Assembly: GCA_004211885.1 (NCBI GenBank)
Contig: SHBV01000005.1
Location: 11,391 to 75,390 of the forward strand
DNA: 64,000 nt
Origin: Verrucomicrobiaceae bacterium
Lineage (GTDB): Bacteria > Verrucomicrobiota > Verrucomicrobiia > Verrucomicrobiales > DEV007
Direction of reading: 5' to 3'
Shown in pieces: positions 4,061 through 64,000 of the stretch (its first letter is position 1; the number at the start of each line of letters is the position of its first letter). The translations under genes were made by a program, and so were the position numbers. Under the pieces are notes generated by a model. That model was not told where the DNA came from. It saw only the letters and a program-made list of their open reading frames with translations, and searched no databases.

Positions 4061-6370
4061 TTGAATAGACTCTTTTTCCAAAATCCTAAGATTAGTGACT
4101 GGATTCTAGTGCCAGTGCTCATGGCTTGTGTTTTGTTCGCTACTTTTTCTTGTAAGAAAAAATCAGAAGAAAATAAGCAACCTTATCATCAAGGTGTGAT
4201 TAGTGATTTTTCTAAAATAGAAAATACCCAACAGGATGAGGAGGGTCACCAAAGGATGCTCAGTTTACTTGCAGGGATCCGGGATTTGACTCCTACCAAC
4301 AATCAGTACTTGGGTGATGGTCGGGCAAGGAAGGCCCGAGAACTCCTTGCCAAGGCCACTCCTCAAACGCCTGCCAAGGAAAACTGGTTCCATCATCGCA
4401 TACTCGGATGGGCAGAACTTAATCTGGGAAATGAGACTGAGGGCATTAAGCATTTGAAGATCGCTTATGATCTGTTGCCTGAAGTCAAAGGTTCAATAGA
4501 AGAGAAGAGGGTCATGGAGAATATTTTTATGCTTGGAGTTGCCTGGATGAGACGAGGTGAGACTGAGAACTGTTGTGCCATATCCACGCCTGAGAGTTGC
4601 ATTATTCCTATCCGTGGCGGAGGCATTCATTCGAAGGAGGAAGGTTCAAGGAACGCCATAAAATACTTTGATGAGATTCTCAAAAAGGCTCCGATAAAAT
4701 CAGTCTGGCATTATAGGGCTAGGTGGTTATTAAATATTGCATGGATGACCCTCGGTCAGTATCCGGAATCTGTTCCTGAGAAGTATTTAATCCCTGAAGA
4801 ATCTTTCCGTAGCAATTACCAGTTCCCGGTCCTGCATAATATTGCCGCTGATCTAGGCATTGACACCTTTAATTTGTCAGGTGGAGTCGTGATTGATGAT
4901 TTTAATAATGATAATTATCTGGACCTTTTTACGACTTCATGGGCATCCGATGCGGCCCCTAAGCTCTTCATTAGTCGGGAGGATGGTTCGTTCAGTGAGC
5001 CAAAGATCTCGACTCGTCTTGAGGGAATTTATGGAGGCCTTAATCTTGAGCCTGCGGATTTTAATAATGATGGGAACCTTGATGTTTTTGTACTTCGAGG
5101 TGCCTGGCTTGCGTCTGCTGGAGGTTACCCTAATTCCTTACTCAGGAATAATGGGGACGGAACATTCACCGATGTGAGTTTTAATCTTGGACTCGCTAAC
5201 ATTCATCGTCCGACCCAGACCGCGGGCTGGGCTGACTTTGATAATGATGGTGACCTTGATCTTTTTGTCGGTAATGAAACTACTCCCGGAAATAATTCCC
5301 CATGTCAGTTGTTCCGGAACGATGGGGATTTGGGCTTTGTTGACGTTGCCTTGAGTGCCGGTGTCACAAATGATAGGTTCACTAAAGGAGTGAGCTGGGG
5401 AGATTATAATAATGACCGTTACCCAGACCTGTACGTTTCGAACTTCCGTTCTGAAAACAGATTATACCATAATAATGGAGACGGGACCTTCACGGACCTG
5501 GCTCAAAAACTAAAGGTGACTGGCCCTTCTTCTAGTTTTCCTGCCTGGTTCTGGGACTATGACAATGATGGAAATTTGGACATTTTTGTTTCGAGCTATT
5601 CCGGAAACATTGAACATGTTGCTGCTCACCGGCTCAAAGAAGAGGCTGATTTCGAGACGCTGTGTCTTTACCGCGGTGATGGTGAGGGAAATTTTATAAA
5701 TGTTGCTGCTGATGCGGGGCTCAATGATCCTATCCTTCCTATGGGGTCGAACTTTGGTGATATCAATAATGATGGGTACCTTGACTTTTATTTAGGGACC
5801 GGAGATCCGGGATTCGGTAGCCTCATGCCGAACCTGATGTATTTGAATGTTGGTGGTAGAAAATTTGTTGATGTGACCATGGCTTCTAGGCTTGGTCATT
5901 TGCAGAAGGGGCACGCAGTATCTTTTGCTGACCTTGATAATGATGGAGACCTTGACCTTTTCGAGCAGCTTGGAGGCGCTTATCCTGGCGATGCTTTCAG
6001 TGATGCGCTCTTTGAGAATCCTGGATTCAAGAACCATTCGATCACTATCAAAATTGTCGGTAAAAAGACGAACCGGTCAGCCATTGGTGCAAGGATCAAG
6101 GCTACCTTCAATGAGAATGGAAAGACACGTTCAGTTTATAGGCACGTTTGTTCTGGTGGCAGTTTCGGCGCTAATCCTCTTCGACAGACCATAGGAACCG
6201 GCAGTGCAAGAAAGCTACAGAGCCTCGAAATTTTCTGGCCGGTGACGGGCAATGCTCAAAAATTTAAAGAAATTGAATGTGACCAGAACATTGAAATTGT
6301 TGAAGGTTCAAATACATACAAGTCTCTGAATCTAGTCCCGCGACCCTTCCTAAAGAAAAATTCCAAATAA
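4061..6370 (+). CDS. TPR-like N-terminal domain + FG-GAP repeats + C-terminal ASPIC/UnbV (CRTAC1-family protein)
   Basis: The 769-aa ORF starts 12 nt after the previous gene, consistent with an operon. FG-GAP repeats are visible (DFNNDGNLD, DFDNDGDLD, DYDNDGNLD, DLDNDGDLD). The C-terminus reads NRSAIGARIK...GGSFGANP...IFWP. The start is uncertain: TTG at 4061 or ATG at 4121. Confidence 0.8.
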   Translation: MNRLFFQNPKISDWILVPVLMACVLFATFSCKKKSEENKQPYHQGVISDFSKIENTQQDEEGHQRMLSLLAGIRDLTPTNNQYLGDGRARKARELLAKATPQTPAKENWFHHRILGWAELNLGNETEGIKHLKIAYDLLPEVKGSIEEKRVMENIFMLGVAWMRRGETENCCAISTPESCIIPIRGGGIHSKEEGSRNAIKYFDEILKKAPIKSVWHYRARWLLNIAWMTLGQYPESVPEKYLIPEESFRSNYQFPVLHNIAADLGIDTFNLSGGVVIDDFNNDNYLDLFTTSWASDAAPKLFISREDGSFSEPKISTRLEGIYGGLNLEPADFNNDGNLDVFVLRGAWLASAGGYPNSLLRNNGDGTFTDVSFNLGLANIHRPTQTAGWADFDNDGDLDLFVGNETTPGNNSPCQLFRNDGDLGFVDVALSAGVTNDRFTKGVSWGDYNNDRYPDLYVSNFRSENRLYHNNGDGTFTDLAQKLKVTGPSSSFPAWFWDYDNDGNLDIFVSSYSGNIEHVAAHRLKEEADFETLCLYRGDGEGNFINVAADAGLNDPILPMGSNFGDINNDGYLDFYLGTGDPGFGSLMPNLMYLNVGGRKFVDVTMASRLGHLQKGHAVSFADLDNDGDLDLFEQLGGAYPGDAFSDALFENPGFKNHSITIKIVGKKTNRSAIGARIKATFNENGKTRSVYRHVCSGGSFGANPLRQTIGTGSARKLQSLEIFWPVTGNAQKFKEIECDQNIEIVEGSNTYKSLNLVPRPFLKKNSK

Positions 6371-32422: not shown

Positions 32423-32528
32423 AAAAGTGGCTGCCAGAGAACTACGGCACTCTCGAACAAACTACCGTTGCTGCCGTCAGGCCCTGGCGGATTCGTCAGT
32501 CGATAGTCCATAGTCTCTGAACAACCGC
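32423..32528 (-). ncRNA. ffs: Candidate signal recognition particle RNA (4.5S-type ffs)
   Basis: On the minus strand a ~106-nt sequence folds by hand into one long interrupted hairpin of ~40 bp. Its apex reads CAGG-GCC-[UGAC]-GGC-AGCA, compared with the E. coli domain IV CAGG-UCC-[GGAA]-GGA-AGCA. A promoter-like TTGTCG-16 nt-TAGAAT (32560-32533) ends 4 nt upstream of the first paired base, and a U4 run lies at the 3' end. It sits in a convergent, ORF-free gap of higher GC. Confidence 0.55.
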
Positions 32529-61642: not shown

Positions 61643-62698
61643 TCAGCTCACAATGATCTGCATTTCAGGATCTGGCTCTTTTGCGTAACCAACAATCGCA
61701 GAGTCAGTGATTCCCGTTGCTGTAAGTTTTTCTAGCGCTTCTGTGGCTTGCTCTGCAGGCAGCGCAACGAAGAGCCCGCCACTGGTCTGAGGATCAAAGA
61801 GGATTTCTCTCTTACTTTCTATTGCTGAGTTTTCGAATCGAATGTGCGGAATGGTTTTTTTGCGGTTATGCTTATTGACCCCAGTCGTTATTCCCTCTGC
61901 ATACATTTGATAGGCCTCTTCCATGACAGGCACTGAATTCAGATCCAAGTGTAGACTTGATTCTGATCCTTGTGCCATCTCTAGCCCATGACCAGCGAGT
62001 CCGAAACCTGTAATGTCTGTAGCTGCATGGATTTCAAAATTGGAAAATACTTCAGCAGCAGATTTGTTAAGGCTAATGACTGTATTGATGCAGGAATCAA
62101 AGGCCTCATCGGAGACTTTGCCCTTTAACCTAGCATTAAAAATGACACCCGTTCCAATAGGTTTTGTGAGAATCAGTGCGTCTCCAGGGCGTGCACCGAC
62201 GTTGCGCCAGATCTTTTGGGGATGCACAACCCCAGTAACAGATAATCCGAACTTAGGCTCAGAGTCTTCGACTGTGTGACCTCCTGCGAGGACGGCTCCT
62301 GATTCGGTAATTTTATCGAGTGCACCTTCAATAATTTTGTGGAGGTCCTCGGACGGTAATTGTCCGTCTGGGAAATTGACTAAGTTCAAACAAGTGATGG
62401 GGCGCCCTCCCATGGCATAAACGTCACTGATTGAATTCGCTGCAGCGATCTGACCATAAATGAAAGGATCATTGACGGGAGGGGTGATGTAATCTGCAGT
62501 GGTGACGATAGCGATCTCTTCGGTAAGCTTATAGACACCGGCATCATCGCTGGTATCAAAACCAACGAGAAGATTAGGATCTTCATTCTTTGGAAGACTG
62601 TCTAATAATTTTCCTAGCCCGACCGGGTCAATCTTTGCTGCTCAGCCGCAGGTCTTTGAAAGGCTTTGTAGAGTATTATGTTTTCTAAAAAATGGCAT
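61643..62698 (-). CDS. selD: Selenide, water dikinase (selenophosphate synthetase), selenocysteine-containing form
   Basis: The track ORF (61643..62413) lacks the SelD N-terminus. Extending the same frame upstream gives MPFFRKHNTLQSLSKTCG-TGA-AAKIDPVGLGKLLDSLP...TSDDAGVYKL...ANSISDVYAMGGRP. The TGA at 62642-62644 aligns with the catalytic Cys/Sec of the E. coli GAG-C-GCK motif (U-x-x-K is conserved). The total is 351 codons, the normal SelD length. Confidence 0.85.
62613..62632 (-). promoter_or_regulatory. SECIS-like hairpin for the selD UGA
   Basis: The mRNA reads UGA-GCAGCAAAGA-UUGACCC-GGUC-GGGCUAG. The GGUC loop falls at nt 21-24 counted from the U of UGA, compared with nt 22-25 in E. coli fdhF. 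Confidence 0.65.
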
Positions 62699-63336: not shown

Positions 63337-64000
63337 ATGAACCACTTCAAATTATCTATTCTTATTTTTATTGTTTTCGAATTTTATACCTATCAATTCC
63401 TAAGTGCGGGATGACCTGCCTGAACTAATCCAGCAATTCCCCGGTCGGGGAATTCAGAAATTACCGCTATGGACCAGTCCATATTCTCATGGAAAGTGGG
63501 TACAGATTTTTCTATTAGTAATGGTATTTTTGGCAGTCACTTATCAAATAATGGCTTAACGAGTTCATTTGAAAATGTCGAAGTTCCAACTCATCGACAT
63601 GATGTCGAAATGGATTTAAGAAGAGCAAGCCTTTCAATTATGAAATCAATTAATGAGGAGTGGGATGCTGCTTTGATGATTCCCTATTTTTGGAAATCTC
63701 AGAAAGCGTCGGTATCTTTTCTTGAGCCTGCAGATCCTTTACAATTAGAGTATGCAGAAAGGAGCGGGTACATTCATCATCGTACAGAAAATTACAATGG
63801 GTTTGGAGATATGGAATTGATGGTAGGCTTCAAGAAACGAGACTTTTTCAAAGATGGATCGGTTTTGAGGTTGGGTATGGGATTGGCTCTACCTTCTGGA
63901 AGGACTGAAAGTGATCCGTGGATATTAGGAGATTACGGAAGAAAGCATCTACATATTCAGTTTGGCAATGGAACTGTAGATCCATTATTAAATCTTTATT
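63337..64000 (+). CDS. Partial CDS: candidate exported selenoprotein with U-P-A-U motif (two in-frame TGA), His-rich beta-type body; runs off window
   Basis: ATG 63337 opens a frame encoding MNHFKLSILIFIVFEFYTYQFLSAG, which looks like a signal peptide. Then come TGA (63412-14), CCT, GCC and TGA (63421-23). The same frame then stays open for ~192 more codons to nt 64000. A SECIS-like hairpin follows the second TGA. Confidence 0.55.
63435..63454 (+). promoter_or_regulatory. SECIS-like hairpin (perfect 8-bp stem, GGUC loop)
   Basis: The hairpin AATTCCCC-GGTC-GGGGAATT starts 11 nt after the second TGA. The loop falls at nt 23-26 from that UGA. No T-run follows, so it is not a terminator. It shares the 10-mer CCCGGTCGGG with the selD element. 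Confidence 0.6.

Follow-up and report, generated by a model that had tools for sequence, protein, structure and literature searches.

Can an exported bacterial protein carry two selenocysteine (Sec, U) residues, only three positions apart, right behind its signal peptide? This question is raised by a gene that runs into the end of a 64,000-nucleotide (nt) stretch from a Verrucomicrobiaceae bacterium (assembly GCA_004211885.1, contig SHBV01000005.1, positions 11,391 to 75,390 of the forward strand), the whole of which is referred to here as the window. The gene starts with the ATG at 63337-63339, and the same frame, which contains TGA codons at 63412-63414 and 63421-63423, is open through 64000; at this point the window would read as a signal peptide followed by U-P-A-U-TNPAIPRSG. 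An earlier note, made from the letters of the window, had proposed that at least the second TGA, and possibly both, is decoded as Sec with the help of a hairpin just downstream. The coordinates it gave for the ATG, the TGAs and the hairpin, the placing of the hairpin loop and the frame open to the edge were all exact on recheck, and so was its remark that TGA terminates genes in the usual way in the rest of the window. In fact, TGA ends 13 of the 41 long open reading frames (ORFs) there, and a variant genetic code could therefore be ruled out. As described below, comparison with homologues indicates that both in-frame TGAs are almost certainly real Sec codons at the start of an exported outer-membrane barrel protein.

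A protein search in which U was replaced by cysteine (Cys, C) returned 30 relatives. Six of them are full-length homologues (344-360 aa, Flavobacteriales and others) with a signal peptide followed by CPACSNPALQSSEKLEAG, which aligns with UPAUTNPAIPRSGNSE, and in the full-length Bacteroidota homologues the signal peptide is followed by CPACSNPALQSSEK, opposite U-P-A-U-TNPAIPRSG of the window. The closer relatives (Verrucomicrobiales, Kiritimatiellia) are annotated from MDQS or further in, because in-frame TGAs lie upstream in their DNA. For example, a Verrucomicrobiales metagenome-assembled genome (locus L001) reads ...YLSAG-TGA-CCG-GCC-TGA-ACAAACCCAGCAATTCCTCGGTCGGGGAAC, and its alternative start reads TTLDQS, with no Met, while a Kiritimatiellia locus of 47% identity (L003) reads ...NVFA-TGA-CCC-GCT-TGA-..ATCCCCC-GGTC-GGGGGAT. 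Relatives at 39-97% identity retain the two TGAs along with frame and signal peptide and have no Met at the alternative start, and the TGA-CCN-GCN-TGA arrangement was found in dozens of independent assemblies. Close relatives comprise about 348 codons and end with ...SLRRSF (homologue P0001, 90% identity; L086/L089).

A scan of GTDB with one genome per species gave 313 confirmed stretches, and a metagenome scan added 36 loci. The state of the pair was read from the DNA of every locus retrieved, in the frame leading up to the invariant HxHIQFGxG motif, which gave 122 family genes: 51 are UPAU, 31 CPAU, 21 CPAC and 15 UGAU, with one each of CGAU, CAAU, UAAU and UPGU. By class, there are 21 CxxC, 33 CxxU and 68 UxxU genes, and UxxC was found in none of the 122. 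Put in another way, TGA occupies the second column in 101 of the 122 genes, 68 of which have TGA at the first column too. The second column, which is proximal to the putative Sec insertion sequence (SECIS), is Sec whenever any Sec is present, and the first is Sec only alongside it; the CPAU, CGAU and CAAU genes have Cys at the first column only. Consequently, Cys- or Sec-aligned homologues (CxxC, CxxU and UxxU) exist at this N-terminal position for both TGAs, as the Sec reading of the earlier note had called for. The Sec codons are flanked by conservation on both sides, namely the signal peptide upstream and SNP... downstream. As for taxonomy, the CxxC forms belong to Bacteroidota and the CxxU forms to Poribacteria; the UxxU forms, which span at least six further phyla, occur in Verrucomicrobiota, Kiritimatiellia, Planctomycetota, Acidobacteriota, Gemmatimonadota, Eisenbacteria and some Poribacteria. 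Some Poribacteria hold paralogue pairs whose states differ, either CAAU with UGAU or CPAU with UGAU (the L035 genes at 6016 and 8587; L048 and L067 on OX639973.1).

Among 135 database proteins of the family, 74 full-length ones have CPAC, and the remaining 61, without the motif, are all N-terminally truncated gene calls. An exhaustive profile search returned 783 clusters at 50% identity (432 at E <= 1e-10), and a called CxxC N-terminus was present in only 11 of 148 newly returned top representatives. The named family members are all annotated as 'hypothetical protein', and every Sec form that was found is annotated as truncated.

Then, does the RNA next to the two codons look like a SECIS element? 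The candidate hairpin begins 11 nt past the second TGA and reads AATTCCCC-GGTC-GGGGAATT in the DNA, with a perfect 8-bp stem. Its GGTC loop, at 63443-63446, takes up nt 23-26 if the U of the second UGA is nt 1. According to the published bacterial SECIS (bSECIS) criteria, the loop has 3-9 nt, the upper stem has 4-16 bp, a G is the first or second nucleotide of the loop, mostly with a G or U behind it (PMC13188914 Fig. 2), the distance from UGA to loop is 16-37 nt and the minimum free energy (MFE) is <= -7.5 kcal/mol (PMC13188914). The window hairpin agrees with all of them for both UGAs (19 and 28 nt; GGUC; -10.6 kcal/mol for 20 nt). The earlier note had held the first UGA to lie beyond canonical spacing, which is not so, since 28 nt is within the published range.

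The MFE of the whole region does not separate Sec from Cys forms. As the shuffle test of the local MFE in the window was not significant either, synonymous-codon randomisation, in which the 16 codons after the motif are recoded with synonymous codons, was used together with a criteria-based hairpin scan. The mean z was -1.71 for the Sec forms (n=87; 24 below -2) and -0.16 for the Cys forms (n=21). The RNA structure in the Sec forms thus exceeds what the peptide requires, the Cys forms being without such excess, and the hairpin of the Sec forms is accordingly no by-product of the peptide. It even looks as if the RNA imposes the peptide, which is IPRSG in Sec forms versus LQSSEK in Cys forms. 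A strict bSECIS filter without mismatches was passed by 30 of 40 UPAU genes and by none of the 21 CPAC genes. Across 18 relatives of the window clade, 93% of the hairpin cells are paired, and one pair covaries (UA 9, CG 8, UG 1), the change swapping Asn for Asp. This covariation is supportive, though short of decisive because the independent events are few. An Rfam scan of the window reported no SECIS family at the hairpin site, and its sole match in the window is a small bacterial signal recognition particle RNA (RF00169, 44.8 bits) at 32429-32522 on the minus strand.

Sec forms outside Verrucomicrobiota and Kiritimatiellia have different sequences at the hairpin site, often with two hairpins. 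The distal one (in L036, L038, L039, L060, L072, L079, L028, L029, L056, L084 and Poribacteria loci) has a GUC, GUU or GGUCU loop 33-45 nt past the second UGA, about 45-65 nt past the first TGA; the proximal one is usually also present in these loci, its loop often lacking the leading G. With the cut-offs applied to these hairpins, 18 of the 21 Cys forms have none. The tandem hairpins may represent a two-hairpin SECIS or, in some phyla, one element for each UGA.

An internal control is provided by the neighbouring selD gene, whose features are listed together with those of the barrel gene in Table 1. The mechanical ORF list holds only its 3' part (61643-62413, minus strand, 256 aa); extended to the ATG at 62698, it reads ...SLSKTCG-TGA-AAKIDP, the Sec form of the catalytic UxxK loop. 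Because this adjacent selD carries an in-frame Sec UGA, the source organism is taken to use Sec. The apex of the selD SECIS matches the core of the barrel-gene hairpin. Indeed, the 10-mer CCCGGTCGGG occurs twice in the 64 kb, both strands considered, once in the barrel-gene hairpin and once 14 nt past the in-frame UGA of selD, with an expectation of 0.03 and no count of 2 in any of 100 shuffles, so that in its setting the hairpin is far from random; the 8-mer CCGGTCGG is confined to the same two sites. In seven relatives, the selD UGA and its apex are invariant. The selD SECIS is therefore an internal positive control for what the SelB of this lineage recognises. The SECIS of E. coli fdhF also has a GGUC loop, and the barrel-gene hairpin shares with it and with that of selD the GGUC apical loop, a G/C-rich stem and a similar distance from the UGA (17 nt in selD, 19 nt from the second UGA in the barrel gene), but differs in having no bulged U in the stem and in lying downstream of two UGAs instead of one.

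Table 1. Features at the end of the window and, in the last row, of three relatives at 87% identity. Positions are those of the window unless a locus is named.
Feature	Position	Strand	Remarks
selD, selenophosphate synthetase	61643..62698	-	in-frame UGA, ...KTCG-U-AAKI; divergent from barrel gene; AIRS + AIRS_C
selD SECIS apex CCC-GGUC-GGG	62618..62627	-	loop starts 17 nt after UGA
selD Sec codon (putative)	62642..62644	-	in-frame UGA
Small upstream partner gene, 115 aa	62875..63222	+	N-terminal hydrophobic helix, invariant CCCC...CEC, C-terminal RSxVLLI; secreted or membrane-anchored (predicted)
Predicted selenoprotein gene, 5' part, 221 codons	63337..64000	+	cut by window end
Signal peptide MNHFKLSILIFIVFEFYTYQFLSAG, 25 residues	63337..63411	+	hydrophobic; ...SAG end abuts first Sec; signal-peptidase-I type
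First UGA, U1 of U-P-A-U	63412..63414	+	aligned with first Cys of CPAC/CPAU homologues; 28 nt to hairpin loop
Second UGA, U2 of U-P-A-U	63421..63423	+	column is Sec in every Sec-containing member; 19 nt to loop
Candidate bSECIS hairpin AAUUCCCC-GGUC-GGGGAAUU	63435..63454	+	8 bp, 4-nt loop, -10.6 kcal/mol; codes part of AIPRSGN
DUF429 ORFs downstream of barrel gene	L086 6035-6727; L087 2791-3483; L088 1215-1907		

What kind of protein follows the motif? Every family gene that was read has an N-terminal hydrophobic segment ending in AxA or AxG directly before the motif, which would place the first Cys or Sec at or beside the mature N-terminus. A lipoprotein reading of LSAG-U was rejected, as the residues before the motif elsewhere (AQA, AQG, VFA, AYA, AYG, QES) fit signal peptidase I and there is no lipobox. 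The earlier note had guessed at an outer-membrane barrel, and this was borne out by the AlphaFold2 model of a Cys form (P0017, 125 aligned sequences), which has a predicted local distance difference test (pLDDT) score of 89.8, a predicted template modelling (pTM) score of 0.85 and 12 long strands. The best PDB matches by Foldseek are FapF (5o67, E = 1e-10) and the COG4313 channel (4rl8, E = 1.7e-10, TM 0.70 target-normalised), then FadL. The members end in a C-terminal Phe, the usual signature of outer-membrane proteins. Most of the residues that never vary are His, Asp, Gly or Pro (H148 H149 D159 H205 H207 ... D291; near-invariant H87, H89 and E192), and the invariant His/Asp/Glu clusters are HxH, IHHR and HLHIQFGxGT. 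In terms of domain families, P0001 matches PF13557 weakly (29.3 bits against a cut-off of 22, with 108 of 242 profile positions matched); Pfam gave no match for the window fragment, P0017, P0015, P0023, P0028 and most other members, and NCBIfam gave none for the window fragment or the family.

The COG4313 channel (Pput2725, PDB 4rl8; PF13557 Phenol_MetA_deg) and FapF (PDB 5o65/5o67) are likewise 12-stranded outer-membrane barrels (TM 0.63-0.74 target-normalised), with only 10-13% sequence identity to the family, which differs from them in its own invariant His/Asp motifs and its N-terminal C/UxxC/U tail; to our knowledge, neither feature has been described for COG4313 or FapF. UxxU motifs with a coding-region SECIS structure just downstream are also present in Prx-like/SelL, NF041115 and FmdB. 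The earlier note had regarded two Sec residues served by one SECIS as very unusual in bacteria; rare they are, but these three families, with two Sec each, set a precedent. NF041115, an HMA-type metal-binding (seleno)protein, has chemistry of the kind that is proposed below for the barrel family. However, in these soluble proteins, which have a thioredoxin fold, an HMA fold or a zinc ribbon, the motif lies in a folded domain instead of at the mature N-terminus of a barrel, and NCBIfam, which gave no match, indicates no sequence relationship. Sec-containing exported outer-membrane barrels are known as well, namely the FCYXU type of TonB-dependent receptor (NF049945) and the MtrB/PioB barrel GSU2204 (NF041027), but these belong to other barrel families, the former 22-stranded, with a single Sec each and no NCBIfam match to the family described here.

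The gene neighbourhoods were examined over all loci by ORF clustering, NCBIfam/Pfam and tblastn. In the window clade, a unit of divergent selD, the CCCC...CEC protein and the barrel gene is conserved in at least seven relatives at 63-97% identity; the 115-aa CCCC...CEC gene immediately precedes the barrel gene in every window-clade relative with enough flank, and no Pfam or NCBIfam family was found for it. Beyond the window end, the three relatives listed in the last row of Table 1 have a DUF429 gene in three consecutive ORFs in different frames, identical in three independent contigs, which could be a conserved frameshift, a pseudogene or some recoding.

Other phyla have other neighbours. On the same strand, 60-150 nt upstream of the barrel gene, 20 of the 21 CPAC loci and at least 16 UPAU loci (Acidobacteriota, Eisenbacteria, Gemmatimonadota and others) have a gene for a secreted protein of about 216 aa in which an HMA domain (GMTCxxC) is joined to a thioredoxin domain (WCGPC). 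This partner appears to be an unnamed family too, because its NCBIfam domain matches are all sub-threshold; it was seen at L006-L027, L036, L038, L039, L060, L072, L079 and L084, at distances of about 60-750 nt. Furthermore, MerTP-like matches occur in 15 of the 21 CPAC loci (11 at >=130 bits; NF033556 with 285 bits in L006), MerA at >=200 bits in five (TIGR02053 with 514 bits in L006) and an ArsR/SmtB-type regulator gene in at least ten. For the Poribacteria CPAU loci, a small Cys-rich membrane protein is encoded upstream in 31 of 31, and YHS-domain, TolC-like and CusB-type adaptor proteins, the last with HMBD repeats, downstream in 19-21 of 31. No homology was detectable between the CPxLC/CC/CC protein of Poribacteria and the CCCC...CEC protein of the window clade (hhalign probability 0.1%). 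The Kiritimatiellia loci have a c-type cytochrome upstream and a P-type ATPase with a YHS/HMBD protein downstream.

Comparative sequence evidence shows that both UGAs behave as Sec codons accompanied by a coding-region stem-loop, and the gene neighbourhoods in other phyla suggest a soft-metal-binding dithiol or diselenol arm on an outer-membrane channel. The following scheme may be proposed. SelB and Sec-tRNA(Sec) would decode both in-frame UGAs under the direction of the hairpin at 63435-63454, a single hairpin probably serving both codons in the window clade, as the spacing is within the consensus range and other UxxU families offer precedents. Cleavage of the signal peptide at ...SAG would leave Sec-Pro-Ala-Sec as the mature N-terminus of a 12-stranded channel that folds like FapF and COG4313. 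In barrels with an even number of strands, the topology rule puts an N-terminal tail in the periplasm or lets it reach into the lumen; the U/C-x-x-U/C tail is accordingly placed, by prediction, on the periplasmic side, where it might act as an arm binding Hg(II) or Cu(I)/Ag(I) and pass the metal between the channel and periplasmic partners. Putative partners are the HMA-thioredoxin protein with MerTP/MerA in Bacteroidota, YHS/HMBD/Cus-type efflux in Poribacteria and the CCCC-rich protein in the window clade. In most lineages, Sec would have taken the place of Cys; a plausible reason is that soft metals are bound more tightly by selenolates, which also stay reactive in the oxidising periplasm.

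Several observations weigh against this scheme. With respect to decoding, ARAGORN found zero tRNA genes in the 64-kb window, hence no tRNA-Sec there, and neither selA nor selB was among the 10 window ORFs scanned. The strict bSECIS filter was failed by 39 of 87 Sec forms, including the relative L001, and the window hairpin itself does not stand out by stability, with z = -1.18 (not significant) for its region against dinucleotide shuffles and z = -1.47 under synonymous-codon randomisation, where 9.7% of the randomisations were equally or more stable. The SelB of E. coli allows the distance between UGA and SECIS to vary only slightly, which is unfavourable to one hairpin for two UGAs 9 nt apart, and for every member selenium incorporation is predicted from sequence comparison. 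With respect to function, pLDDT is below 50 at residues 23-35 of the P0017 model, the motif included, and the position of the motif relative to the barrel was for this reason left unpredicted; the low values fit a motif on a flexible N-terminal tail of about 20 residues. In the window clade, conservation of the neighbourhood is limited to selD and the Cys-rich protein, the downstream genes being variable, and tblastn found none of HMA-Trx, MerTP, MerA, YHS and CusB in the 64-kb window. On balance, the scheme of SECIS-directed double Sec on an outer-membrane barrel with a soft-metal tail is still, in our judgement, quite probably correct.

Could the TGAs simply be true stops, because of a pseudogene, an assembly error or a short upstream ORF, with the barrel made from the ATG at 63469 (MDQS...) without a signal peptide, or left untranslated? 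Gene callers and public annotation treat every Sec form in this manner, as a 'hypothetical protein' of 290-310 aa. However, both TGAs stand at identical columns in more than 90 independent loci from at least seven phyla with the upstream frame and signal peptide intact, an outer-membrane barrel needs a signal peptide, and the Cys homologues are uninterrupted, a SECIS-type structure being present in Sec forms and lacking in Cys forms. The earlier note had named homologues starting at the Met of MDQS as the case that would overturn it, and this case does not hold: at that position, the closest relatives have Leu (ALDQS / TLDQS) in place of the alternative Met, and they keep the upstream frame and signal peptide. 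Stop codons are thus already contradicted by the comparative data and look highly improbable. If both TGAs are read as Sec, the main functional rival to the metal arm is a redox role, in which C/U-x-x-C/U would be a redox-active disulfide or diselenide and the barrel a substrate or partner of the upstream thioredoxin protein, for example a redox-gated channel or part of an oxidoreductase relay. The most frequent neighbour does have a WCGPC thioredoxin domain, CPxC resembles the active sites of thiol-disulfide oxidoreductases, most known bacterial UxxC/CxxU selenoproteins are thought to be redox proteins, and the UxxU of SelL reportedly forms a diselenide. On the other hand, the motif is on an unstructured tail in the model, outside any thioredoxin fold, the same neighbour also bears the HMA GMTCxxC metal-binding domain, and the wider neighbourhoods are metal-handling (MerTP/MerA, YHS, HMBD, P-type ATPase). 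A redox role is therefore considered unlikely, although the two roles are compatible, since the thioredoxin domain could keep the arm reduced.

For the window clade in particular, the barrel might instead help the cell to acquire or traffic selenium, perhaps by letting a selenium species in through the outer membrane or carrying it so as to feed SelD, and the conserved place of selD beside it would then be accounted for. The gene order selD, Cys-rich protein, barrel, which is kept in at least seven relatives, and the lack of metal genes nearby in the window speak for it, and no specific high-affinity selenium uptake system is known in prokaryotes (PMC13188914). However, the Cys forms are found in Bacteroidota mer loci with no in-frame TGA and no selD-like sequence (flanks up to 6 kb on each side), the loci of other phyla are without selD adjacency, and the adjacency may only reflect clustering of selenoprotein genes. 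A selenium role is considered very unlikely.

How, then, would the family fit into what is known of metal handling? In the mer system, the paired Cys ligands of MerP, MerT and MerC hand Hg(II) inward, and Cys-form family members are co-located with MerTP and MerA. The family, however, has no homology to any Mer protein, and the described mer system has no outer-membrane component; a 2021 mer review, in the legend to its Fig. 1, draws Hg as diffusing across the outer wall (PMC8261052). It is thus possible, as a tentative proposal, that the family is an unrecognised outer-membrane component of mercury and copper handling with an N-terminal capture arm (dithiol, selenol-thiol or diselenol), whose members are mostly selenoproteins outside Bacteroidota. 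A 2026 catalogue lists 119 prokaryotic selenoprotein families, with three UxxU entries and two outer-membrane selenoproteins (PMC13188914). The family is unmatched in that catalogue, in a 2022 catalogue and in the Global Ocean Sampling (GOS) study, and no earlier description of it was found in the open-access literature searched. It is an unnamed and widespread family, apparently new as a selenoprotein family within the known class of bacterial selenoproteins with a coding-region SECIS. What is unusual about it is the position of two Sec residues at the very N-terminus of a mature outer-membrane barrel, together with the three states of the pair and the systematic misannotation.

As a result of that misannotation, hundreds of genes in at least seven phyla are annotated as truncated hypotheticals, without the signal peptide and without the sole Cys/Sec motif, and a family model with two Sec columns would mend them. 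With its CxxC, CxxU and UxxU members, the family is a natural system for studying the decoding of two UGAs that lie 9 nt from each other, and it also poses the question why the SECIS-proximal position always converts first. A diselenol arm would be an unusually strong ligand for Hg(II) or Cu(I), and a conserved barrel with such an arm near HMA-thioredoxin and MerTP/MerA is a testable candidate for a dedicated outer-membrane step in mercury handling. If true, these proteins would rank among the bacterial double-Sec proteins with the widest phylogenetic spread, and an outer-membrane step would be added to the mer paradigm.

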